Counted from the first letter of the stretch, positions 1,210 through 18,423 are shown. The stretch: DNA of 64,000 nt from a bacterium (GCA_021463485.1 JAJTYJ010000002.1:108638-172637), one strand, 5' to 3'. Translations and numbers: made by a program. The notes: generated from the sequence alone by a model not told the origin.

Positions 1210-1296
1210 CACCTATTATTTACGGCTGTTACCCTAGTGTAAATAAGCGTCCGCAAGGACAGGCAGTTTTTCTGCCTAAAGAATTGGAGGTCTGCT

Positions 1297-1449
1297 ATGG
1301 ATGACCAAATGATGGAGGGTATGGAAGAAGAGAAAAAAGAAGAAGGCATGATGCCAGGGGCAGAAGCTGCTGAGGGCGAAGAGAAACCAGAAGAGATGCC
1401 AATGGATGGTGAGAAAAAGCCAGAAGAGGGCGAAGAAGCCGCCATGTAA
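1297..1449 (+). CDS. Small acidic, Met/Glu-rich hypothetical protein (50 aa)
   Basis: ATG at 1297 has GGAGG about 8 nt upstream. The 50-codon ORF reads MDDQMMEGMEEEKKEEGMMPGAEAAEGEEKPEEMPMDGEKKPEEGEEAAM, and a hairpin plus T-run follows immediately. It is below the ORF-track size cutoff. Confidence 0.4.
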   Translation: MDDQMMEGMEEEKKEEGMMPGAEAAEGEEKPEEMPMDGEKKPEEGEEAAM

Positions 1450-1467
1450 ATCCCGTTTGGGATAATA

Positions 1468-1495
1468 AAAAGACCCCGAATGGGGTCTTTTTTGT
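1468..1495 (+). terminator. Rho-independent terminator
   Basis: Hairpin agacccc-gaa-tggggtct is followed by TTTTTTG. Confidence 0.6.
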
Positions 1496-1524
1496 TGGTG
1501 GAGTGCCTGGTACCGTAAATAGAG

Positions 1525-2304
1525 ATGCGGAAAATAATTGTTGGCAATTGGAAGATGTACCCGTCGCTATCCGATGCGGTGGTGTTAGCTGGTAGTTTAA
1601 GGCAGTCGTTAGAGAGTATTCACGGAGTAACGGCTGTTTTAGCGCCGCCTACCGCATGGCTTCTGCCAGTTATTGAGCACTGGAAGCACAAAATGCCGCA
1701 CGTGCACTTTGCCGCCCAAAACGTTTGGTCAGACGATCAAGGCGCGTATACCGGAGAGATATCGGCGTATTTGCTAAAAGATATCGTTTCGTACGCGATT
1801 GTTGGGCACTCAGAGCGTCGGCGATACCTAGGTGAAGATAACGAAACAATTAACGACAAACTACTATCGTGTTTACGCTGGCGGATTAAGCCGATACTTT
1901 GCGTCGGTGAGACAAAAAAAGCAGTCGACACAAACGGTAATTTGGCGCAGGTAGAGTGGGGGAAGATCGTAGAACAATTAGAGCAGGGTCTATCTGGAGT
2001 TAAAAGAGAGTATTTGGAAGACGTAACTATCGCATACGAACCGGTTTGGGCGATCGGTAACGGTAACGAAGCTACAGCTGATTACGCTGTTGCGATGGTC
2101 GAGCGATTACGCTCAGAACTGACGAAGCAATTCGGTACCGCTGCCGATACAGTGCATTTCCTCTACGGCGGTAGCGTCGACGCTACCAACGCTGGCGAAT
2201 ATTTGAGGCATAAAGAAATATCTGGTCTGCTAGTGGGCACTGCCTCGGTTAAGGCGAAAGAGTTTGCATCGATCTGCCGGATCGCGGCCGATCTGGCAAA
2301 GTAA
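1525..2304 (+). CDS. tpiA: Triosephosphate isomerase
   Basis: GNWKMY, HSERR, CVGET and YEPVWAIG signature blocks are present. Length is 259 aa. Confidence 0.9.
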   Translation: MRKIIVGNWKMYPSLSDAVVLAGSLRQSLESIHGVTAVLAPPTAWLLPVIEHWKHKMPHVHFAAQNVWSDDQGAYTGEISAYLLKDIVSYAIVGHSERRRYLGEDNETINDKLLSCLRWRIKPILCVGETKKAVDTNGNLAQVEWGKIVEQLEQGLSGVKREYLEDVTIAYEPVWAIGNGNEATADYAVAMVERLRSELTKQFGTAADTVHFLYGGSVDATNAGEYLRHKEISGLLVGTASVKAKEFASICRIAADLAK

Positions 2305-3269
2305 TGTCCAAACAGCTACACGTTGTGCTTATCGGTAAGTCGCCGCTTTCGCTTTTTATTGCACAAGAACTAGATAAATATCTTGGTCCGCTCGTTCAGT
2401 ATAAGTTAACTTGGTTGACCGAAGACAGCAAAATGGTGACCGATCTTCTATCTTTTGACCCAGTTGGGAAGATGAAGAGTGTTGATTTGAGTAAAAGATT
2501 TACTGATCTGCAGATGAGAGTCACGTCTATTAAGAGCGTTAATCTTCGTCGACAAGAAATTGTAACTGGACGCGCAACTGTTAATTACGATTTTCTAATC
2601 TTAGATCAGTTGCCATATTATACGACCAAGGAATTATCGGTAATTTATCAGCAGTTTACTACTTTAATTGGTGCGGTAGCGGCAGCAAAAAAAGGAGAAA
2701 AACCTATTTCTGCAGCTGTTAGTATTGGTGGGACAGCTGCTCATAGCGCCCAACTTGCACTAGCGCTTCGCTCTTTCCAGCTGCGTCATTACCCAAGCCT
2801 ACTTCGTAACATATCGCTTCATATTTCTACCCAACCAACGGTTGTCTGGCCGTATCTGTCTGAGCACTCAGTTGAAACGAAGAATAAAGCTAAAAATGGG
2901 GGTATGACGATCAGCTCCCCAGTGGCGATGGTCAACTCCAAGCAAATTAAAGGCGCAAAAGTTGATCGAAGTAACCATATCGTGGCAGACTCATTTATGA
3001 GAGTCAGTGGTTACGATAACGTGCTGTGTTTTGATAGCCCCGAGTGGCTACGTTCAAACATTCTTCGAACTTATAAGTCTTTTAGTAAATCGGTTATCGA
3101 ATTTCTTGAGAACTTCTTTGAGAATAAGGGTTTAAAGAAACTTCACATCCCAAAACATAGTTTGCTACTTCGCTCTGAAAAAGGGAACTTTGCGTTGATC
3201 GGCGAAATGAAAAGTAATAACTTCCGCGCTAAGTTAGTCGCTAAGCTTGAAGAGTCGCTACGTAGTTAG
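2304..3269 (+). CDS. Hypothetical protein
   Basis: 321-aa ORF, translationally coupled to tpiA (ATGA overlap). I recognise no family motif. Confidence 0.45.
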   Translation: MSKQLHVVLIGKSPLSLFIAQELDKYLGPLVQYKLTWLTEDSKMVTDLLSFDPVGKMKSVDLSKRFTDLQMRVTSIKSVNLRRQEIVTGRATVNYDFLILDQLPYYTTKELSVIYQQFTTLIGAVAAAKKGEKPISAAVSIGGTAAHSAQLALALRSFQLRHYPSLLRNISLHISTQPTVVWPYLSEHSVETKNKAKNGGMTISSPVAMVNSKQIKGAKVDRSNHIVADSFMRVSGYDNVLCFDSPEWLRSNILRTYKSFSKSVIEFLENFFENKGLKKLHIPKHSLLLRSEKGNFALIGEMKSNNFRAKLVAKLEESLRS

Positions 3270-4231
3270 ACTTTTTCTTGCTGGGGTTTGGGTCGGTGGA
3301 ACCAATGTACGATCGCTAAAACCAAAAACATTACACCGATTCCAAGGGTAACGATACTAATATTGCCTAATGTAGTTTTTAGAATTTCCAAAACTGTGGC
3401 AACTATATCTGTAATTATAGGAGCAATTGCTGCAGCGTCGGAACCGCCAAAGAATTCACCAACTGCCCTAGCAATCCAATCCCAGGCAATTAAGCTGAAT
3501 CCAATCTGGAGCAAGCCAACAATAATAAATGTAACGGCTAGCGGTCTAAACGCTTTGCCGCGTAGTAACAACAGCATTAATGCAACGATTAACGCTGTTA
3601 ATCCCCAAACAATCGTGACGATTTGGTTAACCATTATTACTGCTTTGCGGGTACTTTTTAAGCCTTCGCTTGGGTTAGTGACGGAAATATTTGCCGGTAG
3701 GGTGTTGATCCCTTCTGTGGCACTTTTCTGAAAAATCCGCTCAATTTCGTTGTCTTTTACGTTACCTTCGGGAAGCTTGCAAGTTGGAAACTCTTTTTCA
3801 GGGTCCCAGCTACTGAGGTCTTTTTGCTGACAAACAGGTAGCGCGGCGTACTTAGCTAGAGCTTTTTGGGTAATTTCTTCGACGGCATCTTGTTCAACTG
3901 TTGTTAGGTCGTAAGTAAAATTAAGTTCATCCGATTTACCAGTTACATAGCCAAGCGTTACGGTTAAGTACTGCTCAAGCACTTTATAAAAGGTTTCTGC
4001 GTCGATGACATTAATAATTATTTCGGTCATCTCTTCTTTACTAAGCTTGGTTCCGTCCTGCGTTTCCTTTGGTACCATCGACTGGATTTGTCCGGTGAGC
4101 CTGCCGTATAGATTAGTCTTGCGCGACTGCTCAATTAAGAACTCGGGGTTCTCTAAATTTTTGGCTGTGTAGCCTAACGTTGATAGAAATAAGAGGATGA
4201 TTAGTAAGAAGCTAAGAAAGCTTTTTAGCAT
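3266..4231 (-). CDS. Hypothetical membrane protein
   Basis: The most likely start is the internal ATG (MLKSFLSFLLIILLFL…), which gives an N-terminal signal/TM. There are multiple C-terminal TM helices. The longer ORF-track start would overlap pgk. Confidence 0.45.
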   Translation of the reverse strand: MLKSFLSFLLIILLFLSTLGYTAKNLENPEFLIEQSRKTNLYGRLTGQIQSMVPKETQDGTKLSKEEMTEIIINVIDAETFYKVLEQYLTVTLGYVTGKSDELNFTYDLTTVEQDAVEEITQKALAKYAALPVCQQKDLSSWDPEKEFPTCKLPEGNVKDNEIERIFQKSATEGINTLPANISVTNPSEGLKSTRKAVIMVNQIVTIVWGLTALIVALMLLLLRGKAFRPLAVTFIIVGLLQIGFSLIAWDWIARAVGEFFGGSDAAAIAPIITDIVATVLEILKTTLGNISIVTLGIGVMFLVLAIVHWFHRPKPQQEKV

Positions 4232-4286
4232 AACTGTATTGTAGCACTGTGGGCGTTTCTGCAGATGGTTGATACACTGGTTAAAG

Positions 4287-5399
4287 ATGAAATCGCTCGA
4301 AGAGGCAAATATTTTTGGCAAGACTGTTTTGGTGCGCATCGGTGCCGATGTCCCGCTATCAGATTCAAACCCACCAAAAATTACTGATGACTCTAGGTTA
4401 AGAGTTCTTTTACCGACGCTTCAGTATTTAATCAACCGAAAATGTCGTGTCGTATTATGTGCACACCTGGGGAGGCCGAGCGGTAAGATTGATAAAACTT
4501 ACAGTTTGCGTCCTGTCTATCTTCGACTCTCAGCCTTATTGAAGCGACCAATAGTATTTGCGCCGACAATTTTTTCCGAGAAGACGCGATCAGCTGTCGA
4601 GGGGCTCGGTGACGGCGAACTATTGGGATTAGAGAATCTTCGCTTTGAACCAGGTGAAGAACGAAATTCGCGAACCTTCGCTCGCAAACTGTCTGAGTAC
4701 GGCGAAGTGTTCGTCAATGAGGCGTTTAACGTCGCTCATCACGAGGGCGCATCATTTATCGCTATTACCGAATTTTTACCTAGTTTCGCGGGTCTACAGT
4801 TTGAGAAAGAGATCTCAATAATGCGCCAACTCGTTATGCATCCGGCGCGACCTTTCGTGGTGGTTGTGGGAGGGGTAAAAATTGCCGACAAACTTCCTGT
4901 TTTAAGGTATTTATCTCAACATGCCGATAAGGTTCTGGTTGGTGGCGGAGTCGCAAACACCTTTCTCGCTGCGCTAGGTAAGGACGTTGGTAAATCTGTT
5001 GTTGATTCGGATTATTTTGACCAAGCTCGTGCAATTATCAGACGATCCAGGGGAAAGATTGTGTTACCTACTGACTTCGTAACTCATGAGGGCGTAATTC
5101 TAGATATCGGACACGAAACCACAAAAAATTACTTGAAATACTTAAAGACTGCCCAAACTATTTTCTGGAACGGGTCGCTCGGTAAGGCAGAAGATGATGA
5201 TTACGCTGTTGGATCAGAAGTCTTGGCCCATTTTATCGCCGACTCACCAGCTACAACAATTATTGGTGGCGGTAATACGGTGGAGATTTTCTCGAGATTA
5301 AATCTTCTACATGGTTTAACATTTGTTTCGACTGGCGGCGGCGCTACTCTTGAGCTGTTGGCCGGTCATCGCTTACCAGGAATTGTTGCGCTGGCCTAA
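4287..5399 (+). CDS. pgk: Phosphoglycerate kinase
   Basis: PGK hallmark LENLRFEPGEE and an N-terminal substrate-binding region are present. The true start is taken as the ATG (MKSLEE…), not the upstream TTG. Confidence 0.9.
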   Translation: MKSLEEANIFGKTVLVRIGADVPLSDSNPPKITDDSRLRVLLPTLQYLINRKCRVVLCAHLGRPSGKIDKTYSLRPVYLRLSALLKRPIVFAPTIFSEKTRSAVEGLGDGELLGLENLRFEPGEERNSRTFARKLSEYGEVFVNEAFNVAHHEGASFIAITEFLPSFAGLQFEKEISIMRQLVMHPARPFVVVVGGVKIADKLPVLRYLSQHADKVLVGGGVANTFLAALGKDVGKSVVDSDYFDQARAIIRRSRGKIVLPTDFVTHEGVILDIGHETTKNYLKYLKTAQTIFWNGSLGKAEDDDYAVGSEVLAHFIADSPATTIIGGGNTVEIFSRLNLLHGLTFVSTGGGATLELLAGHRLPGIVALA

Positions 5400-5526
5400 T
5401 ATTAGTTTTTTGGTTTCTTTCCACCGAGAATTTTGCGGATATCCTTATCAATATCCTCTTCAGCTTTATCGATTTCTTCCTCAATGATCACATCGGGATC
5501 AGGCGTTTTAGGCGAGATCTTTTTTT

Positions 5527-6000: not shown

Positions 6001-7491
6001 TTAACCGGTGGTTACCGTCTGTATATTGGCTCGCTGTAAATTGAGCTGAACGTCCTCAGCCTCACCGATAATTCTCTTCTCGGCTGGTAGGTAGCCCGAC
6101 TTTGCCGCAATCACGGAGTGCTTGCCTGGTGGAACTAGGATAATAAATCGTCCGGCTTCGTCTGTTATTGTTGAGTGGATAAAATTCTGTTCGCCCTTGC
6201 TGTCACTTGTTACTTGAATAACTGCTTCACCAAGACCGATATCTACTGCTTGATCCTTTACTAAGCCGAACCGCCTGACTTTCGATGAGCCGAGAATCCG
6301 CATAACCCATAGCAAAGCGTACAGTGTTACTAATAAAATATTTTCCAATGTACGAGCTTGGTAAATCAAAATCAGCGATAAAAGGCTGCCAGCAATTAAA
6401 ACAATAAACTGAAATGTTGTAACTACAGAGACGAATTTAGTAAATTTGGCTACTTTTTTTAGCGAAGCAACCCGAACGTCTTCTCTGACAGCCAAGGCAA
6501 TATCAAAAGTTAGCGGTTCGGTGCGTTTGTCATCAATACTGATAAGTTGACTACGATAGGGGAGATAAAGCGGATTTACAACCTGAACCCAATACTGTCC
6601 CGGTTGGGGAGTTAGAAAGCCGAAACGACCAGTTTTATCAGTCATAATTCTTTTAATTTCCTTGCCTGATTGGAGGCTGAATAACGAAACAAAAACACCT
6701 GGAATCGGCACTTTCGTGACAGCGTCGCGAACCGTTCCCCATTTACGTGGCGGTTTGAAAAACGGAAACAAGCTGTAGAGCAGGTACTGTAAGCCCGGTA
6801 TTCCACCAAGTAGTGCGATCGAGATACTACTCGTAACGGGTGTTAGAATCGCCAATGACGGTACGATTGTTGCCAATCCAACAGCGCCAGGTAGTCCTTG
6901 GGGCACGGCATCAGCAATGTCTTGAATAACTTTATTAATTCGCTGGGGGATCGTCGGAGGCTCACTCGGCGGCTCAGTTGTTCCGCCACCGCCCGGCGGT
7001 GGGTCTTCGTCGTCAGGTGGGGGAGGCGGTGGGTCTTCTCCTCCACCGCCGACTGTTGTGAAGTTGACGGTTGGCTTATCTTTCAACGTTACCGTATCAA
7101 CTACAGCGGTGTAGGTTGAAAGGCCGATGGTGGTGGAACTAACGAAACAGGTGAGCCTACCGCTAGCGTTGGTCGTGCCGGTGTTCTGTTGAGTCGAAGT
7201 CTCGTTAGCAAGATCGCAGTCGATAAAATCGAGCAATCCGCGCGAGGAAGTAATGGTGACGAACTTATTCGGCAGCACTTGGTTAGCGGCGTTACGAGCA
7301 GTTACAACTAAGGTTGAGAGCGCGATGCCATCGGCAGGCACTGAAGTAGGGGCAGCGGTAAATGTTGACAGATCGTCGTCGACGTTTGGCAGCACGTTAG
7401 CGTTAACATCAATATTCGTTTGAGCTTGTACGCCGGAGCTAACAGCTAGCAGCAAGATTGAGGCAAGCGCTGCGCGCAGCACTTGTACCAT
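6001..7491 (-). CDS. Surface-cluster polytopic membrane protein: signal peptide, Ig-like (Big) domain, Pro/Gly-rich linker, two transthyretin/CarboxypepD_reg-like domains separated by TM helices
   Basis: N-terminal signal MVQVLRAALASILLLAVSSGVQA is followed by a PPPPPPDDEDPPPGGGG linker. The blocks GQYWVQVVNPLYLPYRS and GRFIILVPPGKHSVIAAKSGYLPAEKR resemble carboxypeptidase-regulatory/transthyretin folds. There are several hydrophobic helices. Its start overlaps the stop of the upstream gene (TAATG). Confidence 0.5.
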   Translation of the reverse strand: MVQVLRAALASILLLAVSSGVQAQTNIDVNANVLPNVDDDLSTFTAAPTSVPADGIALSTLVVTARNAANQVLPNKFVTITSSRGLLDFIDCDLANETSTQQNTGTTNASGRLTCFVSSTTIGLSTYTAVVDTVTLKDKPTVNFTTVGGGGEDPPPPPPDDEDPPPGGGGTTEPPSEPPTIPQRINKVIQDIADAVPQGLPGAVGLATIVPSLAILTPVTSSISIALLGGIPGLQYLLYSLFPFFKPPRKWGTVRDAVTKVPIPGVFVSLFSLQSGKEIKRIMTDKTGRFGFLTPQPGQYWVQVVNPLYLPYRSQLISIDDKRTEPLTFDIALAVREDVRVASLKKVAKFTKFVSVVTTFQFIVLIAGSLLSLILIYQARTLENILLVTLYALLWVMRILGSSKVRRFGLVKDQAVDIGLGEAVIQVTSDSKGEQNFIHSTITDEAGRFIILVPPGKHSVIAAKSGYLPAEKRIIGEAEDVQLNLQRANIQTVTTG

Positions 7492-8471
7492 TATTGAATA
7501 ATCCGTCGAGGCGGACGCGGCTGAACTTGTTGTGGCGGAATGGTATTGACGTACTCTTTAAGTTTGGCGCGTTTGCGACGTCGAGTAACGATGAGCGTGC
7601 TGATAATAAGAAGCAGCGCGATGATCGCGATAATCAGCCAAAGCGGAATAACTATAAAAGTTCGGTTAGCGACTAACTGCTGCTCTGGAAGCCCATAAGT
7701 TAACGCTAACGATGCGGTAAATTTACCCATTGTTTTCCAGTCGAACTCCCAAGTGTTGTTAAAGCGTCGCTTGCTCTCTGGTAGGACATTGCTGTTTCCC
7801 TCGTTAACTTTAAGCGTTTGAACGACGTTACCGGACCAGTTTCTTATCTTTATCTCGCCGACCGGCTTCGAGTGGATGTTGCCGACGTTATTAATGCGAG
7901 CTGAGAAATTCGCCGGCGGGCTAATCAGAAAGACCGGCGCGTCAAAATCTTCTAGTAATAGTTTTTCGGTAATATCGCCCGGAACTGTTACCAGCAGCAG
8001 TGTGCCGACCAAACCGACAACGCCAATTTGGCTTACGTCTTCGTCAAGTTTTGGCTCTTCGGTAGAAAAGAGGATTGCGCCGTAATGCCCGCCCGGTTCG
8101 GCGTTTGCTGGGGCGGTAATGGTAACCTCAAATTTTTCTTCTTCGTTTGGCTCGATCCGGAGGAACGGCTTTGAGAACGTTGCCCAACTCGAGAGTGCGT
8201 AGGTTGAGTATTTCTCTTCTTCAGTAAAAAAGACCGGTTTACCGCCGTCGTTATCGGTATGAAAATTCATAATCCGCGGATACAGCGTCATCGATCGAGT
8301 AATCGGATTAATCACCCGTACGGTTCTGGTGACTGACTGTCCGGGGCTAACGACAAACTCGTCTTTAACCGGAGTTACTGTAATACCCGCCGCTCCGTTT
8401 TGAGCAAATGTTGAGTTAGAAAACGTTGCTAGAGTTAACAGCAACAAGGTAGCTGCCAGGAATCTATGCAT
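7491..8471 (-). CDS. DUF916/DUF3324-like cell-surface protein with C-terminal membrane anchor (CscA-like topology)
   Basis: Signal peptide MHRFLAATLLLLTLATFSNSTFA, then a beta-rich ectodomain of about 270 aa, then a single C-terminal TM (IPLWLIIAIIALLLIISTLIV) followed by RRRKRAKLK and a Pro-rich tail. The family assignment is based on topology only. Confidence 0.4.
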   Translation of the reverse strand: MHRFLAATLLLLTLATFSNSTFAQNGAAGITVTPVKDEFVVSPGQSVTRTVRVINPITRSMTLYPRIMNFHTDNDGGKPVFFTEEEKYSTYALSSWATFSKPFLRIEPNEEEKFEVTITAPANAEPGGHYGAILFSTEEPKLDEDVSQIGVVGLVGTLLLVTVPGDITEKLLLEDFDAPVFLISPPANFSARINNVGNIHSKPVGEIKIRNWSGNVVQTLKVNEGNSNVLPESKRRFNNTWEFDWKTMGKFTASLALTYGLPEQQLVANRTFIVIPLWLIIAIIALLLIISTLIVTRRRKRAKLKEYVNTIPPQQVQPRPPRRIIQ

Positions 8472-9566
8472 TTAGAAAATCCCAGTACACACGTATGTAA
8501 TATTATCAGTGTAAGAACCAGCGTTTGCCAAACCGGAGACAGCCGCTTTATGCACAATCGTCAGCACTCGACTTGCCATCGGCCCGGATCCTGAAGCTAT
8601 CGGTGTCGCTGTTCGCAGCAGTCCACCTACCTGGTTACCAGACACATTATAGGGGCTTAAGGCAGAAAGAGCTGCACCTGAACCGCCAGATGTCGATCCT
8701 TGTATCCCGTAACCATCTACCCCGACAGAAAGTGTAGCGTCGGCTGATGCGATTAAGTACGTAGGTGACGAGCTTTTGTACAATCCAGGGTTAGTACCGC
8801 TACCTTCGTCGCGAACACTCACTGCCACCCCGCTCGCAGCGTTGGTGCTGATAGTTATTGTTGTGCTCGTGTCAGACGTAGAAATTGCACCAGTCGTCAG
8901 TGATGCAAAGGTTGTGGTTAGTCCAGTGAACGCGCAGGTAATTGACGGATCAACCGTAGCGTTAACTGTCACATCATTGTCAGCTACGATCTCGACAGCA
9001 ATCGAGCCAGAGTCGGCCATCGTACCGCCGATAAGAATCTTGGCGTCAGTAGCGTTTTGGGCAGCGGTTTGGTTGACGATCGTATTAGCTGCACCGCCAG
9101 CGTTGGTACCTGCTTCTAGTTGGATGCATCGTCCTGCCGCAACTGTGTCGGTGCCAGATGTAAATGTTACAACCTGTCCGGTAATGTCAAATCCCCAAGT
9201 AGTGCCTGAGGCTGTTAATGCGATAGTTTTATCGGAAAAACTCGCACATGACCCAGCAGCACTAACAGCGAAGTCCCAGTTAGAGGTGCTTTCTGCTGCA
9301 AGAGCAAATCCCGTAGGAAAGGTAATAGTAAAAGTCTGACCGGCTGTTATCCCAGTTGGTGTAATAAACTCGATTGTATGATCAGCATTCTGACTCTCTT
9401 TTAAGGTTGAGAGGGTGTCTTTGGCGCTGGTAACTTGTGCAGCGTATACGTACGATCTAACCGGAAAAAACGCAAGCAACAACGCCGCGATTAATAGGTA
9501 AGAAAACCTTCGATAATTCCCCTCGTTTCGGTTCATCTGAAATAAGTTTCTTTTTCCCTTGGGCAT
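8472..9566 (-). CDS. Secreted surface protein, paralog A of a 3-member family (conserved N-terminal and C-terminal domains, C-terminus …ITYVCTGIF)
   Basis: Signal peptide. It shares the N-terminal block (DTLSTLKES…H) and a roughly 180-aa C-terminal domain (…VDGYGIQGSTSGGSG…TIVHKAAVSGLA…YVCTGIF) with 9579-10688 and 10730-11818. Confidence 0.55.
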   Translation of the reverse strand: MPKGKRNLFQMNRNEGNYRRFSYLLIAALLLAFFPVRSYVYAAQVTSAKDTLSTLKESQNADHTIEFITPTGITAGQTFTITFPTGFALAAESTSNWDFAVSAAGSCASFSDKTIALTASGTTWGFDITGQVVTFTSGTDTVAAGRCIQLEAGTNAGGAANTIVNQTAAQNATDAKILIGGTMADSGSIAVEIVADNDVTVNATVDPSITCAFTGLTTTFASLTTGAISTSDTSTTITISTNAASGVAVSVRDEGSGTNPGLYKSSSPTYLIASADATLSVGVDGYGIQGSTSGGSGAALSALSPYNVSGNQVGGLLRTATPIASGSGPMASRVLTIVHKAAVSGLANAGSYTDNITYVCTGIF

Positions 9567-9578
9567 TTGTCAAGTTTA

Positions 9579-10688
9579 CTAAAAGATACCAGTACAAACG
9601 TACGTTAATGTATCTGTGTACGCGCCAGCGGCTGCCAAGCCAGAAACGGCTGCTTTATGAACAATTGTGACAACTCTACTGGCTACGGCACCAGTTGCGG
9701 AAGCTAAAGTTATTGGAGTTAATTCAAGGCCGCCAACATCATTACTTGTTTGATTATACCGAGCGGCAATAGCCACCGTTGCTCCTGAACCACCTGAGGT
9801 TGAGCCTTGAATCCCGAACCCATCTACGTCGTTTGTAAGTGTAGCAGTATCAGAGAATGTCGGACTCCCATCCGCTGAGCCAATCAAATACGTTGGTGAA
9901 CTACTCTTATATAATCCTGGATTACTGCCGTTACCAGCGTCACGCACAGATATGTTAAAGCCGTTCGCGGCATTAGTACTAACCGTTATAGTTGTATTTG
10001 TATCCGACGTTGCGACCGGTCCGGTCAGCGAAGCAAAAGTAGTTGTTAAACCGGTGAACGCGCAGGTAATTCTTGGATCAACCGTAGCGTTAACAGTTAC
10101 GTCGTTATCGGCAACAATCTCAACAGCGACGCTACCAGTGTCTGTATAGCCGCCACCTCCAGTTAGGGTAATAACACCGTCGGTACCGTTTTGAGCGGCC
10201 GTTTGGTTGGTAATTTGATCGTTGCCGGTTCCGCCAGTAGTGGCGTGTGTACCGATCTCAATTACTACTACGGATCCAGCTGCAATTGTTGCGTCACCAG
10301 TACAACGAGTAAAGGTGAAGCCGATCGGGTCGACGGTATCAACGGTTGTAATCGCGATTTCAAGTGTTGCACCGGTGCAACCGCCACTTGCTACAAGGTT
10401 TTGTTCCGCGCCGTCGTCGGTAATGTCAAAATCTTCTGGCTCCGTATTGGCAAAGCCTGAGTTACTAAACCCTGCCGGGAAATCTAACGTCAGTGTCTCG
10501 TCAGCCGCCCACCCGTCCGTGATAGTAAAAGTAAATGTATGATTAGCGACGACGCTTTCCTTAATGGTTGAGAGCGTGTCAGAAAATGACGTCACGTCAG
10601 CTGCCTGGGTTCTGGTAACAGGGAAACTGCTAACGAGCAGTATCGCGACAATAATTTTTCTTATGGAATTAAACGAAACCCCTCTCAT
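9579..10688 (-). CDS. Secreted surface protein, paralog B (C-terminus …LTYVCTGIF)
   Basis: Signal peptide MRGVSFNSIRKIIVAILLVSSFPVTRTQA. The N- and C-terminal domains align with paralogs A and C. The middle region is T/G/D-rich and variable. Confidence 0.55.
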   Translation of the reverse strand: MRGVSFNSIRKIIVAILLVSSFPVTRTQAADVTSFSDTLSTIKESVVANHTFTFTITDGWAADETLTLDFPAGFSNSGFANTEPEDFDITDDGAEQNLVASGGCTGATLEIAITTVDTVDPIGFTFTRCTGDATIAAGSVVVIEIGTHATTGGTGNDQITNQTAAQNGTDGVITLTGGGGYTDTGSVAVEIVADNDVTVNATVDPRITCAFTGLTTTFASLTGPVATSDTNTTITVSTNAANGFNISVRDAGNGSNPGLYKSSSPTYLIGSADGSPTFSDTATLTNDVDGFGIQGSTSGGSGATVAIAARYNQTSNDVGGLELTPITLASATGAVASRVVTIVHKAAVSGLAAAGAYTDTLTYVCTGIF

Positions 10689-10729
10689 CTACTTTCTAAC
10701 GTTATAACTAAATTACTCATATGTAAAGG

Positions 10730-11818
10730 CTAAAATATTCCGGTGCAAACGTATGTTACTGTATCGCTGTAGGCGCCTGACGGCGCGAGATTTGAAACAG
10801 CCATTTTATGTGTGACCGTAACGATGCCGTTATTGATCGGACCGGCAGTACTCGCTAACTGTTGGCTTGCTCCAGCGCCAACCTCTAACCCGCCGACGGT
10901 GTTGCCGGTTTGGTTGTAGCGCGTGGCGATAGAGAGAGTGGCGCTACCAGCGTCTCCTTGGGTAGCGGCGCCTTGAATGCCGAAGCCGTCAACGTTATTT
11001 GAGAGCGTAGCGGTGTCGGCAAACGACGAGTTGGCGGAGCCGATCAAATACGTCGGTGCGCTACCTTTATATAGTCCCGGACTAGTCCCGTTGCCGTTGT
11101 CGTAGACGCTAATACTCAGCCCATTTGGCGCGTTCGTACCAGCAGTAACGGTTGTATTAGTTGCAGCCGTAATTATTACGCCGGTAGCGTCGGGGAAAGT
11201 AACTGTTAGCCCGTTGAAGGCGCAGCTGATTCTTGGCAACACGGCAACGCTTACGGTTGCGTCGTTGTCAGCGACGATCTCAAGTGCTAACGTTCCCGAT
11301 CCGCCGAAGGTTCCGCCTAGCGTTACCGTTGGGTCGGTGTCGTTCTGAGCTGCGGTTTGGTTAATGATTTGGTCGTTTCCAGTAGCACTAAAGGTTGCGT
11401 GAGTACCGATTTCGATAACAATAGTTGAGGAGCTAGCGATGCTGGTACTGCCAGTACAGAGGGTAAATGTGAAAGCGCTGTTATTAATGGAGGTGATATC
11501 AATTTCGTTTGCGGAGCACAGCCCGTTTGCGGTTATAGCCTTATCGACGCCGTCGTCGGTAATGTCAAAATCTTCTGGCTCCGTATTGGCAAATCCGGTG
11601 GTATCGAAGCTATTCGGAAAGTCTATAACCAACGTCTCGCCCGCGTCCCAAGAGTCGTTAATCGTAAACGTTAACGTATGATTGGCAGCGGTACTTTCTT
11701 TGATTGTTGATAGCGTATCTGAGAAATTACTAACTGTCGCTGCAAGCGCAAATTGGTTCGTTGGAAATAGGGTAGTAACAACGAGCGAAGCAATACTGAA
11801 CGCTCGCAACCAACGCAT
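10730..11818 (-). CDS. Secreted surface protein, paralog C (C-terminus …VTYVCTGIF)
   Basis: Signal peptide. Its N-terminal block (VSNFSDTLSTIKESTAANHTLTFTINDSWDAGETL…FANTEPEDFDITDDG) is nearly identical to that of paralog B. The start overlaps the stop of the giant gene (TAATG). Confidence 0.55.
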   Translation of the reverse strand: MRWLRAFSIASLVVTTLFPTNQFALAATVSNFSDTLSTIKESTAANHTLTFTINDSWDAGETLVIDFPNSFDTTGFANTEPEDFDITDDGVDKAITANGLCSANEIDITSINNSAFTFTLCTGSTSIASSSTIVIEIGTHATFSATGNDQIINQTAAQNDTDPTVTLGGTFGGSGTLALEIVADNDATVSVAVLPRISCAFNGLTVTFPDATGVIITAATNTTVTAGTNAPNGLSISVYDNGNGTSPGLYKGSAPTYLIGSANSSFADTATLSNNVDGFGIQGAATQGDAGSATLSIATRYNQTGNTVGGLEVGAGASQQLASTAGPINNGIVTVTHKMAVSNLAPSGAYSDTVTYVCTGIF

Positions 11819-14800
11819 TAGAACGTTCCGGTAACGATATATAAGACTTCGGTCTGGTAATTTTTTGCAGCTTGCAAGGCATCAACAGCAACTTTGTGAG
11901 TGATGGTGAACACTTCGTTAGTAACTGGACCGGTCGCGCCAGTGACGGCGTCGGTGTGATCGGCGACGATATCGCCAAATGCTGCAGTAGCAAATGATGC
12001 ATACAGCGTGCCGCTACTGAATTTATTCGAGCCCTGAATTGTCGTGTCGTTACTTGTATAGCCGTAGCCGCAGTTCGAACCGCCCGTGCAGAATCCGCCC
12101 GGCCATGATCCAGGTGAAGCGTACGTACCACCCTGGAACATAGGGATAGTAAATGAACCGTTTGTTAGCAAGCCGGTGGCGTATTGCCTGATGACGTAAC
12201 CGCCGTAGGCGTTGGTACTGGTAGTTAGGTTGAGGGTTTTGCTATCAGTTCGATTATTTCCGTCGTTGAGGTTCGAGAACGTAACAGTGGTCGAACCAAG
12301 CGTTAAGCTGATAGTTGGCAAGACGTCCTGACCGTTGGAACTGTGAACGCTTGAGGTATTACTAGCGTTGTCGATTGCTCGAACGTTCACGTAGTAGCGC
12401 TGGTTTGTGTGTAGACTTAACCCCGCTTGTGTTGTGTCCTCGTTGGTTCCGTTATTTGTCCAAGTAAGTATATCGGTTCCGCCGGCTGTTGTACCGATCG
12501 ATACATCGTAACGCAGCAGTCCTGAGGCACCACAACTGAACGCATCCCAGTTGGCTGTTAATTCCTCGAGCGACCCGTCGTTAAACGCAGCGTCGACGTC
12601 TTCAACTAAGCCGTCGTATATTGTCCCAGCGTACGTGCAGGCAGTTGTATCTACGCCAAAGTCTCGAGCCGACTCAGCGTTACCGCCGTAGCTTACCCAA
12701 GATCCGTATACTCCGCCCTGATCTTTAACTCGTGCTTGCCAGTGGTACTCGCTCACGTCTGTTATTCCGCTAATCGTGACCGTAACGGTAACTGGTGTAC
12801 CGGAGTACGCAACGCCAGTTCCGCAAAGATCCTCGGTGTTACTGAAACCAGTGCCAAGTAAGTCTTTTTCAACGCATAGGTATAAAGTGTCGGAAGAATC
12901 AGTGTCTGAGGCTGTTGCTGTAAATTTAACACTCGTTTCATTGGTCCAACCTCCGGTTGCGATCACGGTATCGTTGGTTTTTTTCTGGGCTAAGTCGCTT
13001 GGCGCGTCCGGATTACTAAAGTTCCAATTTACGTTATTGCCACAATCAAAATTTGTTCCGTCGTTTGCCATGATCGTATTGCCGCTCGAGGCGTTCGATC
13101 GAGAGACGTTAACGTAACTAACCGCAGTTTGAGTGCCCGATACGTTCAAATTCCACGATCCGCTGACGGCGCTGTTGCGGAAGTATAGTCTGGTACCGAC
13201 GGCTTGACCGTTCCAGTTGATATTCGTCAGTGTGTACGTAGAACCGGAATTAAACTCTATGCGAGAGCTGGCAGTAGTGAAAACGGTGTTATTGGTTACT
13301 GTCGCTGAAGCAGCGAAGTCAATACCGGCGACAAATCCGGTTCTTTCGCAATCGGATGCGTTAGTGCCTGAGCTGTTAGTGATTGTAAGATTGTAAAATG
13401 AGCTGGACCCAGTCATTAACCCACTTAATGTTTGAGTACTCGTTCCGTTTAATACAACAGTTCCAGTATTAGCATTCAATACAGCATTATTGGTGTTAAC
13501 CCAGTTTCCGCCGACGTTTAGTGTTCCGGATCCGAGTGTCAGTATTGCTGTTGTTGTCCCAAAAGTTACATTACCAGTAACAGTTACCGTATAGCCGTTG
13601 ATATCTATCTCAGACGCGCGACTGCAACAACCAATTAGGAAGCTTGTGAATGAAGCGTTGCCCTGGAAAATTGTTTTAAAACCAGTGTTTTGCTCCGTTT
13701 GAAGACCAGAATTATATGTGAATGCGGGAATATTTTTATTGTTTGATCCGTATGGCGCATATGCGCCGTTACCAGTTCCCCAAGTTCCGGAAGGATTAAG
13801 GTTTAAGAAATTCGCGTTTGTACCAGAATTGTAGAGTAGTCTTGAGTTTAGATCGAATGTTCCCGTTCCTAGGTTGATTTGGTTTTCAACACCAAATGTT
13901 TGCATCATCCGTGTGGTGTTGCCCGATTGCCCAACTGTTAGGTTGTAAAATCGGTGCTGCCAGACGTTTGTTGATCCGGTAGTTATCGTTTTTGTCCCGG
14001 TACCGTTCATAACTACTGTCGACGTCCCTCGAACGAACGATGCGTCGTCAGCGCCAATAGCTGATGTATCCCAGTTACCAGAGACAGTAATGGTGGCGGC
14101 CCGTGCTTGGAACGTCCAGGTACCTGAAGTTCCTGTGAAGTTGTTATCGACCGTTAGGGAATAGTTTGATCCGTTAACAGTGTCATACACACCATTAGTG
14201 ATCGTAAAGTTGTTATTAACGTCTACGGCGGCAGTTGGGGTTAGAGTTCCGCCAGCGGCATTAAGAACCATATTATAAAGAGATTGTCCGTTGGGGGCAT
14301 AGCTAACGGTACCGGAAGTGTTTGTCCAAGTTAAGGTGGAGGTTCCTTCGGTTACCGTAAAAGTACCCGTGCCGTTAACGAATCTAACATTACCCTTAAT
14401 ATTGATATCCGCGCTTGACAAATTTAAAGAATGACTTCCACCGTTTGAAACTGGGAATAAAGCATTACTTGTTCCATTCTCAAGTGTAACGGTACTCGAA
14501 CCGAAGTTACTGGCGATAGCAGTCGTGTTAGAACTGTGACCGGTTGAAAATGATTTGGCTGTCAAGTTAAAGTTTTGTGTGTTGAAATTCGATCCAGCAC
14601 CGCCACTAGCCGCCCAAACAAGAACCGTCCCAGTTGTTGTTACGTTTCCCGAAAGGTTGAATGTAACCGTACTGGCCGTATCGGCACGTAGTAGGATATT
14701 CCAGGTGCCGTAGTTACCGCTGGCGATGGAGATGGTGCTGGCACTTTGCTTGCGCAAATGAAAGGTAGCATTTGAACCCGACAGAGTTGCTGAACCATCG

Positions 14801-17800
14801 ATAGATAGGTCGCTACCACTGGTTCTAAATAGCTCAAATTCGCAAGTTACAGAACAAGTCATAATCCCAGCATTAACGGTTAAGGTATTATAAACATCAG
14901 TTCGCGCAATTGTCATAGTTGTTGTTTGACTGGTCGAGGCAACACCAAGATTATGAAATTGAGTAAAGCCTCCTCCCGTTGATTTGATTTCACCTGTACC
15001 GGTAAGGTTAACTGTAGAGGCTCCCCGAGAAAAACTACTGGAATTACCCTTGTCCCAGTGTCGACCAACACTTATTGTTGAGCCATTTGCGGTAAAGGTT
15101 ACTGATGCGCTATTGGCTAAGGTAAAATCTCGCCCGACCGTGAGAGAATAGTTGGTTCCACTGGTGGAAAAGGTTCCCAAGCTGACAGTAAAATCGTTCT
15201 CTGTTTCAGTATTTGCTCCCAAAGTCCAGCCACCACCCGAACCGTTAAAAACTAAATGATTAAATTTGCCGGTTGAGCCGGATAGGGTGCCGCTGAGAGT
15301 CCTTCCGGTTGTGGTTGAGTTAAAGGTAGCTGTACTGGTGCCAGCGGTGAAAGTGCCGTCGTTCTGCCAGGAGCCGCTGACGTTGATAGCATTAGAATCG
15401 GCTATCCAAGTACCATCATTCTCGACGTGAACTGTAGTTACATCGGCTCCGCCGCCGGAGGCCGGGCGGAAAGTATTGCCGGTTACTATGTATAGCTCCT
15501 CGTCGGTATATGAGCCGAGCGAATCGACCGTTAAGTCGTCGCCGGCGGAGACATCGAAGAATATATCTTCATCGCTGGAAACGGAGTTGTCGTAAGAGCC
15601 AAGGTCAGTATTGCTCAACGTCTGGTTGTCGGCCGAACCAATCGTTAAATGGCGATGAAACAGAACCACGCCGGTAATATCACCGCTTCCGTCATATTTT
15701 GTGACGGCGACGGCCTCCTCGCTGTCGGTCGTTTCGCCGTTAATGAAAACTGTAATGATATCACCGCTATTGGGTTTATTAACACTAGAAATTTGCCAGG
15801 AACCATCGACGGTGGTGTCAACCTGCGCTTGGAGAGAGCCATTAACTGCAACAGCAATTTCATTAGCGCCGTCGTCGGTGCAGTCAGTAGTTTGATCGTA
15901 TTGGTCACAAGTACCGGAAATATTAATTGGAGGCGATACTGTGTAATCAATTAATAACCAAAGGGCTGTAACCCTAACGGTTCCACTTGAGCTAAGTACA
16001 TCTCGAACGCCAATTTGAGCAGAGTCTAATTGAGTATCAGTCCAAGCCGATGCCATTTCTGGCCTGGTGTAAGCGGTCAATGGATAAAGTTTTGGATCGG
16101 CGGTTCCATTAGTTGTCCAAGTAGTTGAGTCCGGTGAAAGGATAGTTGATTCAATAGCAATGCCCGACGACGATTCTTTCAGCCGGACTTTAAAGTCCTC
16201 CTGTGTGGCAGAACTTGTGCTAAATCTGACACCGACTGAAACTAAATTAACAGTATCGCTTGCCCCAATACTAGAATCAGTAATGTTGTATTCGTCGATA
16301 TCGTCGCTAGTTGTTTCCGATACGTAATTAGTGGCGTCATTGGGGGTTACCTCGTCAACACAAGCATAATTTCCGCCCGTACAGGTGCCGTTAGTTGTCC
16401 AGTTGGCAGCGGAACCGGCTGTGTTTGGCCGGAGATGAATAATTTTCCCGTCGCCTGGCCAAGTATTCTGATTTGTACCGATTCCCTTATTGACCGCAAT
16501 ATCATCCCAGATAAACCCTCCTTGATTGTTACTAACTTCTGAATTGTCACTTGCGTTGATCCCAATTCCCAAACGCGCAACCCCAGTTCCAATACTACGA
16601 GTTGTGGAGCTAGCAAAGGAAGTACCATCAATCCTTCCATCAACAATATGTGAACCCGACGAGCCAGTTGTATCTATCCGTAGTTCAATTCGGTACCAAG
16701 TGCCGGTTGATAGGGCCGATGAAGCCGAGCCAACCTGGCTATCTTCATCAAATAATTTCAGGGTATTGGACGAAGTGATTTTTATTGCTGCCCTTTGCAG
16801 GTTACTCGTATCCAAAAATGACATGATGGTGGCATCAAAAATATCCACAGCTGTAGATATCCGAAAGTAGGCACGACCATAGTAGTCCCCGTTCGTGTTG
16901 CTGGATTCAAAATAGTAGCGAACGTATTCCTGCCCGCCACCATTTTCAGTCTCAAGTGAGTATGCACCGGATCGAACTGTACTACTATTTATGGAGGGCG
17001 AGTTGGTAACGGCCGTTACTTCCACACCGGCAGTGGCCGAGTTGAGCTCTAACCCACTGGAGATTAATCTGCCACCGGTGAGAGAAACGTACTCTACTTG
17101 GAGCCAGATGGCCGTCATTTTAAAGCCGGTCCCGTTGGGATCATCGTTGCGAATACCAATTTGAGCAGAATCTAAATTGGTAGTAGTCCACTGGGTAGTG
17201 CTACTGCCCGGCAAGTCATAAATAGTAAGGGCGTTAAGACGAGCCGTATCGTCGTTGTTAGTCACATACCCGCCAATTAGATCATCAATTCCGGTGGAGG
17301 CACTCTCTTCAGTGGTACCGCTAGCGCTAGCTTTGATGCGAGTCTTGTAATTAACATCTCCATTGCCAATCGAGCAAGCCGGCTCTGGGATTACTGCTCC
17401 GCAGATTCCGAAACGAGCGCCGACAGAAACTAGTTTAATGTAATCCCCGGCAGAAATACCGGCGTTTGAGGACGACTCCAGGTTAACATCGTCAAGCTGG
17501 TTTTGGGTGGTACTGCGGATAAAGTCGGTGCTGTCGTTGGGGGTGACTTCATCGACGTCGTCGTAATCATTAGTATCACTGGGATAACCGCCCCAGGCGG
17601 TATTGTCTCCGTCGGCATCGGGTTGCATATGAACAATATTGCCTTCGCCCGGCCAGTTATCAGTTGAGCGGCCTGACGAATTGTTGACAGCAAGATCATC
17701 GAAAAATAAATCGGCCGTGGTCGAGTTTGCCACTCCCCATGTCCACCTATCCACGCCTGCTGCTAGATTCTCCGAAGACGATGTAGAGATTTGGGTACCG

Positions 17801-18423
17801 TCAAGCAACATCGTTGCAGTTGTCGTTGAAAGCGTAGTTGTATTAATATAGACCTCTAAGCGGTACCAGGTGTTTGTTGAAAGTGCTGAACTGGCGGAAC
17901 CAATGTTAGCATTATCCTCTTCATTTCTAAGCTGGAGAGTTGAGGAACTGCTCATGCGGACGCTGATTTTTCCGCTCGATCCATTACCAATTTGCATAAT
18001 ATAGGTGTCTGCACCAGGCGCGGTCGCAATTCTAATATATTGTCTAAACCAAAATTTGTTGCTTTGGGCGCTGTTAGCCCAAGTCTTGTAGATTGTTCCA
18101 GTTGAAGATGTGGGGTTTGCCCTAAATGCATAATCTCCGCTTCGCTTTGTTGAGCTAGAAACGGACACAGTTCCCGCTGATCCGGTAATCTCTACGTTGG
18201 CAGTAAGTGTGTTTAGTTCGGCGCCGCTCGACCAAAGCCGGGTAGCGCTAGCTGAACCAGCCTCACCGAGGATTGTTCGGGGAAAAACTCCATTAACAAT
18301 TAAACTGATGAGGAGCAAGAAAGTAATAGCTGCTGCACCCAAACGAGGCGCTTTTCTGACGATTTGGAGCCTGCGTAAATCCCGAAACAGGCCATCGAAG
18401 CGCTTTTTAGTTTTCCCCTCCAT
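11818..18423 (-). CDS. Giant (2201 aa) cell-surface protein: N-terminal signal anchor, two LamG/ConA-like jellyroll modules, long T/S/G/N-rich beta-repeat region, C-terminal domain shared with the three paralogs (…VLYIVTGTF)
   Basis: 6.6-kb uninterrupted ORF. There are internal duplicated modules (TWYRLEVYINTTT…FFDDLAVNN…NWPGEGNIVHMQP and TWYRIELRIDTTG…IWDDIAVNKG…TWPGDGKIIHLRP). The C-terminal ~170 aa match the paralog C-terminal domain (…ITHKVAVDALQAAKNYQTEVLYIVTGTF). Confidence 0.6.
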   Translation of the reverse strand: MEGKTKKRFDGLFRDLRRLQIVRKAPRLGAAAITFLLLISLIVNGVFPRTILGEAGSASATRLWSSGAELNTLTANVEITGSAGTVSVSSSTKRSGDYAFRANPTSSTGTIYKTWANSAQSNKFWFRQYIRIATAPGADTYIMQIGNGSSGKISVRMSSSSTLQLRNEEDNANIGSASSALSTNTWYRLEVYINTTTLSTTTATMLLDGTQISTSSSENLAAGVDRWTWGVANSTTADLFFDDLAVNNSSGRSTDNWPGEGNIVHMQPDADGDNTAWGGYPSDTNDYDDVDEVTPNDSTDFIRSTTQNQLDDVNLESSSNAGISAGDYIKLVSVGARFGICGAVIPEPACSIGNGDVNYKTRIKASASGTTEESASTGIDDLIGGYVTNNDDTARLNALTIYDLPGSSTTQWTTTNLDSAQIGIRNDDPNGTGFKMTAIWLQVEYVSLTGGRLISSGLELNSATAGVEVTAVTNSPSINSSTVRSGAYSLETENGGGQEYVRYYFESSNTNGDYYGRAYFRISTAVDIFDATIMSFLDTSNLQRAAIKITSSNTLKLFDEDSQVGSASSALSTGTWYRIELRIDTTGSSGSHIVDGRIDGTSFASSTTRSIGTGVARLGIGINASDNSEVSNNQGGFIWDDIAVNKGIGTNQNTWPGDGKIIHLRPNTAGSAANWTTNGTCTGGNYACVDEVTPNDATNYVSETTSDDIDEYNITDSSIGASDTVNLVSVGVRFSTSSATQEDFKVRLKESSSGIAIESTILSPDSTTWTTNGTADPKLYPLTAYTRPEMASAWTDTQLDSAQIGVRDVLSSSGTVRVTALWLLIDYTVSPPINISGTCDQYDQTTDCTDDGANEIAVAVNGSLQAQVDTTVDGSWQISSVNKPNSGDIITVFINGETTDSEEAVAVTKYDGSGDITGVVLFHRHLTIGSADNQTLSNTDLGSYDNSVSSDEDIFFDVSAGDDLTVDSLGSYTDEELYIVTGNTFRPASGGGADVTTVHVENDGTWIADSNAINVSGSWQNDGTFTAGTSTATFNSTTTGRTLSGTLSGSTGKFNHLVFNGSGGGWTLGANTETENDFTVSLGTFSTSGTNYSLTVGRDFTLANSASVTFTANGSTISVGRHWDKGNSSSFSRGASTVNLTGTGEIKSTGGGFTQFHNLGVASTSQTTTMTIARTDVYNTLTVNAGIMTCSVTCEFELFRTSGSDLSIDGSATLSGSNATFHLRKQSASTISIASGNYGTWNILLRADTASTVTFNLSGNVTTTGTVLVWAASGGAGSNFNTQNFNLTAKSFSTGHSSNTTAIASNFGSSTVTLENGTSNALFPVSNGGSHSLNLSSADINIKGNVRFVNGTGTFTVTEGTSTLTWTNTSGTVSYAPNGQSLYNMVLNAAGGTLTPTAAVDVNNNFTITNGVYDTVNGSNYSLTVDNNFTGTSGTWTFQARAATITVSGNWDTSAIGADDASFVRGTSTVVMNGTGTKTITTGSTNVWQHRFYNLTVGQSGNTTRMMQTFGVENQINLGTGTFDLNSRLLYNSGTNANFLNLNPSGTWGTGNGAYAPYGSNNKNIPAFTYNSGLQTEQNTGFKTIFQGNASFTSFLIGCCSRASEIDINGYTVTVTGNVTFGTTTAILTLGSGTLNVGGNWVNTNNAVLNANTGTVVLNGTSTQTLSGLMTGSSSFYNLTITNSSGTNASDCERTGFVAGIDFAASATVTNNTVFTTASSRIEFNSGSTYTLTNINWNGQAVGTRLYFRNSAVSGSWNLNVSGTQTAVSYVNVSRSNASSGNTIMANDGTNFDCGNNVNWNFSNPDAPSDLAQKKTNDTVIATGGWTNETSVKFTATASDTDSSDTLYLCVEKDLLGTGFSNTEDLCGTGVAYSGTPVTVTVTISGITDVSEYHWQARVKDQGGVYGSWVSYGGNAESARDFGVDTTACTYAGTIYDGLVEDVDAAFNDGSLEELTANWDAFSCGASGLLRYDVSIGTTAGGTDILTWTNNGTNEDTTQAGLSLHTNQRYYVNVRAIDNASNTSSVHSSNGQDVLPTISLTLGSTTVTFSNLNDGNNRTDSKTLNLTTSTNAYGGYVIRQYATGLLTNGSFTIPMFQGGTYASPGSWPGGFCTGGSNCGYGYTSNDTTIQGSNKFSSGTLYASFATAAFGDIVADHTDAVTGATGPVTNEVFTITHKVAVDALQAAKNYQTEVLYIVTGTF

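Follow-up and report, generated by a model that had tools for sequence, protein, structure and literature searches.

Three tandem paralogs in a Berkelbacteria-like genome as probable subunits of a divergent Pam-type pilus

Why a small bacterial locus should carry three similar secreted proteins in tandem, and whether their central parts have been diversified by an active mechanism, are the questions raised by positions 8472-11818 of the DNA studied here. The window, by which is meant the whole stretch that was analysed, comprises 64,000 nucleotides (GCA_021463485.1 JAJTYJ010000002.1:108638-172637), and the closest named relatives of its host are Candidatus Berkelbacteria metagenome-assembled genomes. 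An earlier note on this DNA had described a tandem triplication (genes A, B and C) with a near-identical N-terminus of ~70 amino acids, a common C-terminal domain and a hypervariable, T/G/A/N-rich middle of ~120 amino acids, and had suggested diversifying selection or cassette shuffling. The analysis points to another answer: A, B and C are probably three anciently duplicated subunits of a donor-strand-exchange pilus of the Pam type, and divergent members of that family.

The triplication itself was confirmed, as three homologous and intact open reading frames (ORFs) at exactly these coordinates. All are on the minus strand, arranged head to tail, A at 8472-9566 (364 amino acids), B at 9579-10688 (369 amino acids, chosen for the structure model) and C at 10730-11818 (362 amino acids). 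Signal peptides are present in all three copies and homology spans the full length (tblastn E 1e-67 to 1e-113), with amino acid identities of 59% for A-B, 47% for A-C and 60% for B-C. All three have positional orthologs in other genomes. A combines a Saccharimonadia-like N-terminal domain with a B-like C-terminal domain, and in C the signal peptide is followed by an N-terminal domain of the B/C type, the linker EIVADNDATVSVAVLP and the C-terminal domain. Translation of A may start at the ATG at 9566 (364 amino acids) or at the ATG at 9536 (354 amino acids); the 364-amino-acid form is absent from the protein collection and the ortholog in a related locus, L004, was called as 354 amino acids from the second ATG. 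The short start leaves an intergenic gap of 42 nt, resembling the 41-nt gap between C and B. Apart from the three genes, the only A/B/C-like sequence in the window is found in the last ~170 residues of the 2201-amino-acid ORF directly upstream (27-30% identity, tblastn with A and C).

Pam pili were described in 2026 from one cultivated Saccharibacterium, and are thought to mediate the first contact of ultrasmall parasites of the candidate phyla radiation (CPR) with their hosts. The Pam pilus is a donor-strand-exchange filament of the CPR bacterium Ca. Mycosynbacter amalyticus (Troman et al. 2026, bioRxiv 10.64898/2026.03.03.709456). PamA and PamB each have a nine-strand N-terminal domain and a linker strand that is donated to the truncated immunoglobulin (Ig)-like C-terminal domain of the neighbour; the linker and the groove of the C-terminal domain are the most conserved parts of Pam pilins, and the cysteines are paired. 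The chaperones PamC and PamD have a PapD/FimC-like fold with a C-terminal transmembrane helix, PamT is an acceptor-only tip, and PamR is a membrane-anchored terminator with an N-terminal strand. Pam systems were reported mainly in Saccharimonadia and Microgenomatia (bioRxiv 10.64898/2026.03.03.709456).

The link between A, B and C and this family runs through their homologs. The NCBIfam model NF058581, named "Pam pilus system pilin subunit" (CPR_Pam_pilin_C), matches A with an E value of 3.6e-4. A homolog search with B gave 209 homologs. Of 103 full-length homologs NF058581 matches 70 (best 8e-37), in B terms over the region of the C-terminal domain. Eight distant homologs (P0109, P0110, P0111, P0113, P0114, P0116, P0117 and P0119) align with B over 92-100% of its length (E 1e-20 to 1e-27) and score 59-127 bits on NF058581 (P0114 126.6, P0119 88, P0113 80.3), above the curated cutoff of 55 bits. 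Through these proteins the sequence comparison transitively places A, B and C among the Pam pilins. A large superfamily stands behind them: the family profile matches 4818 representative clusters (clustered at 50% identity), and for 735 of these the E value is 1e-30 or lower. The matching proteins are mostly 330-420 amino acids long and match end to end, and four of ten that were sampled pass the NF058581 cutoff. The three-paralog alignment found only three loci in the genome collection. Pfam gave nothing meaningful on A, B and C and only sporadic Big_8 matches on all 103 homologs, and searches of PDB sequences with B, the family profile and the giant protein gave no relevant match. In one protein of 3077 amino acids (P0263) the pilin profile matches in ten separate stretches, best with the N-terminal-domain profile positions 36-198, and giant surface proteins may also use the pilin N-terminal domain as a repeated module.

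The predicted structure of B agrees with the family assignment. The AlphaFold2 (AF2) model, with a predicted local distance difference test score (pLDDT) of 94, is all-beta and has two domains, with a signal helix at residues 5-20, about ten strands within residues 35-188 and a beta domain at residues 207-367. Between the two domains, residues 189-206 form a linker that in the monomer model is extended and unpaired, with high pLDDT and almost no DSSP strand. The model thus appears to fit the published layout of PamA and PamB, that is, an N-terminal sandwich, a linker and a C-terminal beta domain. The published conservation pattern is also found here: the linker is the most conserved part and paired cysteines are present, with four conserved cysteines per paralog (B residues 104, 129, 209 and 365).

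Conservation along the proteins was compared in segments divided according to the predicted structure of B, and residue numbers refer to B. Pairwise identity is 31-36% in the signal peptide, 41-68% in residues 30-100 and 45-62% in residues 132-185 of the N-terminal domain, 57-90% in the linker (residues 186-206) and 55-72% in the C-terminal domain (residues 207-369). The stretch between the cysteines of the N-terminal domain (residues 101-131) has an identity of 19-38%, with indels. The linker of B (10071-10133, minus strand, ending AVEIVADNDVTVNATVDPR) is the putative donor strand, and the C-terminal Ig-like domain of B (9582-10070, minus strand, ending YVCTGIF) the putative acceptor of the neighbour's linker. 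No other stretch of the protein is as conserved as the linker EIVADNDVTVNATVDP, which has 90% identity between A and B and the lowest column entropy (0.65-0.73 bits). In 62 close homologs the column entropy is 1.1-1.4 bits in residues 71-140 and 0.6-1.3 bits in the C-terminal domain; when all 103 homologs are taken, the middle and the C-terminal domain vary to the same degree.

Divergence is not uniform along the proteins, and to this extent the variable middle stands. The excess is significant only in the stretch of ~30 residues between the cysteines (B residues 101-131; 10296-10388, minus strand), where identity is 19-38% as compared to 51-65% in the remaining mature protein (Fisher p 0.0007-0.02). 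In the AF2 model this most divergent segment is a hairpin flanked by Cys104 and Cys129, with predicted strands at residues 110-117 and 123-128, and both flanking cysteines are kept in A, B and C as well as in the further homologs that were looked at by eye. The rest of the supposedly hypervariable ~120 amino acids contains conserved blocks, IEIGT.AT, NQTAAQN and the linker. The near-identity of the N-terminus reduces to a likeness between B and C, which are 68% identical in residues 30-100; A is only 41-46% identical to the others, which shows that its whole N-terminal domain has diverged. Richness in T, G, A and S is found along the whole protein and is not peculiar to the middle. The common C-terminal domain was borne out, and a fourth copy ends the 2201-amino-acid ORF.

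This ORF encodes a giant secreted protein (11818-18423, minus strand; 2201 amino acids), a candidate tip adhesin with a Pam-type C-terminal domain in its last ~170 residues (about 11821-12327). The last 220 amino acids align to the pilin profile with a hhalign probability of 97.6% (E 4.4e-12), starting at 'TVDPsIT' just past the linker, and NF058581 matches the C-terminus at E 1.2e-5 (25.4 bits, model positions 3-148). The conserved donor linker is missing, as the domain is preceded by 'SSVHSSNGQDVLPTISL' and not by 'EIVADNDVTVNATVDP'. Pfam found no significant domain in the giant protein, the best sub-threshold match being DUF642 with 20.6 bits against a cutoff of 27 bits, and the PamT model NF058579 had no match among the window proteins. 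The length of the giant protein among related loci ranges from 2201 to more than 3677 amino acids (window 11818-18423; L002 502-8871; L005 1-8909; L001 1-8846). In a comparison with L002, identity is 68% over the ~1400 N-terminal columns of the alignment, where synonymous sites are saturated, and 92% in the C-terminal part, which has a synonymous substitution rate (dS) of 0.32.

On the other side of the pilin genes is a gene for a membrane protein of 326 amino acids with a chaperone fold (7491-8471, minus strand), belonging to the DUF916/WxLIP family. It has a signal peptide, two beta-sandwich domains, a transmembrane helix at residues 277-308 and a basic, Pro-rich tail (AF2 pLDDT 91.4). PF06030 matches it at E 8.7e-5 and 23 bits, slightly under the gathering score of 27.3, and matches 60 of the 95 members of its family (best 1.9e-9), several of which are annotated as DUF916. 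The top Foldseek matches are the WxLIP structures 9i1y and 9i25 of Enterococcus faecium (E 3e-12), one match being a complex of WxLIP with a long WxL, and the next are the chaperone-usher chaperones CfaA, CsuC, Caf1M, FimC and DraB (to E 1e-7). The gene comes after the pilins in every related locus.

The following gene (6001-7491, minus strand; 496 amino acids) encodes a candidate basal anchor or terminator. The protein has a signal peptide, a linker-like strand at residues 24-37, a Big_1 domain, a Pro-rich spacer and two CarboxypepD_reg domains (Pfam), and hydrophobic stretches between the spacer and CarboxypepD_reg were judged by eye to be putative membrane spans. The strand at its mature N-terminus (7381-7422, minus strand) reads QTNIDVNANVLPNV and by eye resembles the pilin linker DNDVTVNATVDPRI. 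The mature N-terminus is conserved in orthologs, and in post-chaperone proteins the donor-like strand has the form Q..[IV]xVx[AG]xV directly after the signal peptide. In each locus it resembles the pilin linker found there and co-varies with it. The pilin linker of L007 is DSVNVTATVDP and its post-chaperone gene starts QDVSVTATVVD; the corresponding proteins of L008 and L009 start QTNVQVTGQV and QSVDVEGNVA. These donor-strand proteins are encoded at 12132-12983 in L007, at 8157-9116 in L008 and at 10458-12269 in L009, the last after a second pilin-chaperone pair. A homolog search with the first 170 amino acids of the anchor candidate gave none at E<=1e-3.

The order giant protein, pilins (three or four), chaperone and anchor is kept in L001, L002, L004 and L005. 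The more distant L007, L008 and L009 keep the pilin, the chaperone and the donor-strand protein, and the giant protein where the contig reaches. L007 has a single pilin, and in L008 and L009 pilins and chaperones are interleaved in pairs. In L007 the pilin scores above the Pam cutoff, the gene after it matches the chaperone profile (E 9e-88), and the giant protein encoded upstream also ends in a C-terminal domain without linker. Four pilin paralogs are found in L005 (10001-13414), and in L004 an extra gene for a 474-amino-acid DUF3466/CBM96 protein (3803-5227) lies between the A ortholog and the chaperone. The donor-strand protein of L007 (region 12132-17261) has Big_6 and dockerin domains and no membrane anchor; the three following genes are cohesin-like by eye, and the C-terminus of the product of 12971-14083 is hydrophobic and transmembrane-like. 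This hints at a cohesin-dockerin tether of the pilus base in L007. A promoter and terminator scan of the operon gave fewer sites than, or no more than, shuffled sequence.

The synonymous sites of the paralogs are saturated (proportion of synonymous differences, pS, 0.77-0.81) and the duplicates are therefore old. The codon comparison of the paralogs proposed in the earlier note was made, and the nonsynonymous rate (dN) stayed under dS in all sliding windows; with saturated dS, however, the paralog dN/dS is uninformative and cannot exceed 1. Orthologs from related strains (L001, L002, L004 and L005) were therefore compared instead with the Nei-Gojobori method. The window and all compared loci derive from metagenome assemblies. 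The ortholog dN/dS is 0.02-0.16 in the genes for A, B, C, the chaperone-like protein, the anchor and the giant protein, the variable segment included, and dN exceeds dS in 0 sliding windows. C is 97% identical to its ortholog in L002 (L002_g1), 95% in L004 (L004_g1), 74% in L005 (L005_g1) and 68% in L001 (L001_g1), with dN/dS of 0.09-0.12. B is 94%, 91%, 88% and 76% identical to its orthologs in the four loci. A is 98% identical to its ortholog in L004 and 69-73% to those in L002 and L005; the value for L002 is 69% with BLASTP and 72% in a global alignment, with saturated dS.

Sources for programmed variation were looked for in the same way. In the 64-kb window, tblastn and repeat searches gave no partial or silent copies, template-like repeats or inverted repeats, and a search for extra partial copies matched only A, B, C and the C-terminus of the giant protein. 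The only repeats of at least 60 nt in the window are two stretches of the paralogs with 74-77% identity. At the DNA level the paralogs reach at best 74-79% identity, over stretches of 62-178 nt, and recent conversion tracts are therefore absent. Given the low dN/dS, the saturated paralogs and the lack of silent copies or repeats in the window, neither diversifying selection nor programmed cassette switching is supported.

Recombination does occur, between strains and at the level of domains, and not as an exchange of cassettes among the paralogs. When B is compared with L002, dS rises from 0.097 over codons 1-205 to 1.24 over codons 206-369, and the jump coincides with the boundary between linker and C-terminal domain. 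In the comparison of B with L004, dS is saturated in codons 1-150 and 0.45 in codons 151-369. For gene C dS to L002 is 0.12, while for gene A it is saturated. DNA identity plots have sharp block edges near window positions ~10,000 and ~10,250. Neighbour-joining trees of the two domains are incongruent, the N-terminal domain of B being sister to that of L002 (100% bootstrap) and the C-terminal domain to that of L004 (99%). The A-type N-terminal domains form one clade (100%), and their C-terminal domains fall into two groups, one B-like and one termed 'third-gene'. All C-terminal domains of the lineage form one clade (100%), separate from Woykebacteria, and the types of N-terminal domain differ from each other at least as much as from Woykebacteria domains. 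Mosaic blocks are also seen in a flank (window 1-5400 against L002 15068-20463), where TIM is 99.6% identical with dS 0.145 and PGK and the adjacent 321-amino-acid ORF have saturated dS. As the housekeeping flanks are mosaic too, the mosaicism is not specific to the pilins, and recombination with divergent lineages seems to be genome-wide. The data support a pilin mosaicism that is allelic and domain-level within a population. The apparent pattern of conserved ends and a variable middle is largely explained by domain structure, old subfunctionalisation and recombination between strains, and not by an active variation mechanism.

The alternatives to these conclusions have some evidence on their side. 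The three copies could be a repertoire for variation, with the middle under antigenic or ligand-driven diversifying selection or diversified by cassettes; in favour of this, the Cys-flanked hairpin is significantly more divergent and richer in indels than the remainder. Codons 61-140 of C are only 47-62% identical to L005, compared with 82-93% in the C-terminal domain, and A and the giant protein are strongly different between otherwise close strains. We nevertheless consider such a repertoire very unlikely, as dN stays below dS throughout, the saturated synonymous sites of the paralogs leave no ongoing exchange, and conversion tracts of recent age, silent copies, template repeats and invertible elements were not found in the window; in addition, it is the C-terminal domain and not the middle of A that changes fastest relative to L005, and the entropy of the middle is raised just modestly over the whole family. 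The mosaics could alternatively be assembly artefacts, chimeric contigs that join co-occurring strains, given that only metagenome assemblies were compared and that the blocks extend into housekeeping genes. Artefacts of this kind are an improbable source, since the mosaic alleles turn up repeatedly, on contigs and in samples independent of one another (6 contigs from at least two runs carry P0003), and this speaks against a single chimeric assembly. Furthermore, L002 and L003 have an identical gene layout, the B and C proteins of the window are found also in Logan assemblies, and the incongruence of the domain trees extends to more distant genomes.

Display in the manner of WxL proteins has to be weighed as well. 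A, B, C and the giant protein would then each be held singly on the surface, with the C-terminal domain permanently completed by a strand of the DUF916/WxLIP-like protein, and the paralogs would be alternative ligand-binding modules. In the WxL clusters of Firmicutes, WxLIP (DUF916-DUF3324-TM) is predicted to complete the WxL sandwich with its own strand, and the description of WxL proteins is that they are bound to peptidoglycan (Hassan et al. 2023, PMC10599100). The partner protein here is of the DUF916/WxLIP family with E. faecium WxLIP as best structural matches, and the locus is laid out like a WxL cluster, with one large protein, several small ones that have the C-terminal domain in common with it, and a WxLIP. 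The pilins here differ in having an additional N-terminal domain and a conserved donor linker, and WxL proteins are not described as filaments. The pilins have no WxL motif and Pfam gave no WxL (PF13731) match, the 103 homologs included. Overall, single display of this kind appears unlikely.

Several observations also count against assignment to a Pam-type pilus. The 20.6 bits of A on NF058581 are far below its curated cutoff of 55, and B and C are unmatched at E<=1. The likeness to PamA and PamB, though probable, is drawn from the published description and NF058581. The formation of a filament by A, B and C is deduced here from genes and a monomer model. The candidate tip has 2201 amino acids fused to the C-terminal domain, where PamT is a single domain, and the candidate anchor has Big_1 and CarboxypepD_reg domains and several hydrophobic stretches, where PamR is RbmA-like. 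When a hidden Markov model of the linker was run against all ORFs in the window, the strand of the anchor candidate was not significant (E 2.7), and the anchor idea therefore rests solely on position, conservation and co-variation. With these points taken into account, a Pam-type pilus is still the probable answer.

A working model of assembly can be drawn up for such a pilus, in which polymerisation, the order of the subunits and the roles of tip and anchor are derived from the arrangement of genes and domains. The pilins would be exported by Sec, after which the signal peptide would be removed, and each would fold into an exposed N-terminal beta-sandwich and an incomplete C-terminal Ig-like domain. 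Polymerisation of the filament would proceed by insertion of the linker EIVADNDVTVNATVDP into the C-terminal domain of the neighbouring subunit, with the membrane-anchored PapD/WxLIP-like protein of 326 amino acids capping the subunits and catalysing strand exchange. The 2201-amino-acid protein, with an acceptor domain and no linker, would sit at the tip as an adhesin. The linker-like strand of the 496-amino-acid protein may plug the last subunit and tether the filament. Linker and C-terminal domain would be conserved because of a need for mutual compatibility and for fit to a single chaperone. The N-terminal domains, which would be exposed, have diverged into old types, the A type and the B/C type, the disulfide-bracketed hairpin being the most permissive part, and homologous recombination between strains would re-assort these modules.

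Outside the pilus region, the rRNA genes of the window are unlinked (25052-26503, 38898-41835 and 42275-42392). The 16S and 23S genes are ~12 kb apart with ORFs and tRNA between them, the 5S gene comes after the 23S gene, and the 16S match covers 1452 nt on a model of 1533 positions.

If the assignment is correct, the locus adds a new and divergent member to the Pam pilus family, and the triplication is meaningful as a set of pilus subunits. The Pam pilin architecture would then extend to a Berkelbacteria-like lineage where curated models leave the annotation 'hypothetical'. The full logic of the operon can be read from sequence; its putative parts are a giant tip that is acceptor only, several shaft subunits that are both donor and acceptor, a single chaperone anchored in the membrane and a membrane protein that is donor only. 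Through its DUF916/WxLIP membership the chaperone also offers a connection that can be tested with the WxL clusters of lactobacilli and enterococci, which are poorly understood. Neither WxL nor DUF916 appears in the Pam preprint (bioRxiv 10.64898/2026.03.03.709456), and an evolutionary link between Pam and WxL thus seems to be unreported.

Similarity to the WxL/Csc systems of Firmicutes is found in the partner protein of the PF06030 family, with two Ig-like domains and a transmembrane helix at the C-terminus, and in large and small secreted proteins that share a C-terminal domain completed by a foreign strand. A common origin of the Pam and WxL systems is plausible, while the side of the acceptor domain is unproven as the pilins have no Pfam WxL match. 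As a tentative and rather speculative extension, Pam and WxL/Csc could have branched from a single ancient system of donor-strand complementation in bacteria that lack an outer membrane. The Pam chaperone would be a DUF916/WxLIP protein, the Pam C-terminal domain a remote WxL-like acceptor and the linker a recombination joint at which N-terminal domains are re-assorted with assembly domains. If this were true, either WxL clusters form filaments that have gone unrecognised, or the chaperones of Pam systems also act as stable anchors on the surface.

The chaperone-usher pili (Fim, Pap, CFA/I, Csu and Caf1) are without detectable sequence similarity to the system described here. There is no usher and no outer membrane in the present case and the chaperone is membrane-anchored; the putative donor is an internal linker of two-domain subunits, whereas in chaperone-usher pili it is an N-terminal extension. 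The two are alike in the fold of the chaperone, in Ig-like subunits and a donor strand with alternating hydrophobic residues, in a tip adhesin made of an acceptor-only pilin domain and a binding region, and in the presence of several paralogous subunits in one operon, the donor and the tip being putative here.

The Pam pilus of M. amalyticus differs from the present system in that it has two chaperone genes and not one. A, B and C score below the curated cutoff and belong to a Berkelbacteria-like lineage. The chaperone here is recognisably DUF916/WxLIP, which has no mention in the preprint, and the candidate tip and anchor would be functional analogues, not homologs, of PamT and PamR. Both systems have a CPR host and Sec-secreted two-domain pilins of ~37-39 kDa with a conserved linker and paired cysteines, and both have several paralogous pilins per operon (PamA, PamB and PamE in M. 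amalyticus). They also share a chaperone with a PapD-like fold and a transmembrane helix at its C-terminus. An acceptor-only tip and a membrane protein whose N-terminal strand is donor-like, both candidates here, would be further common features.

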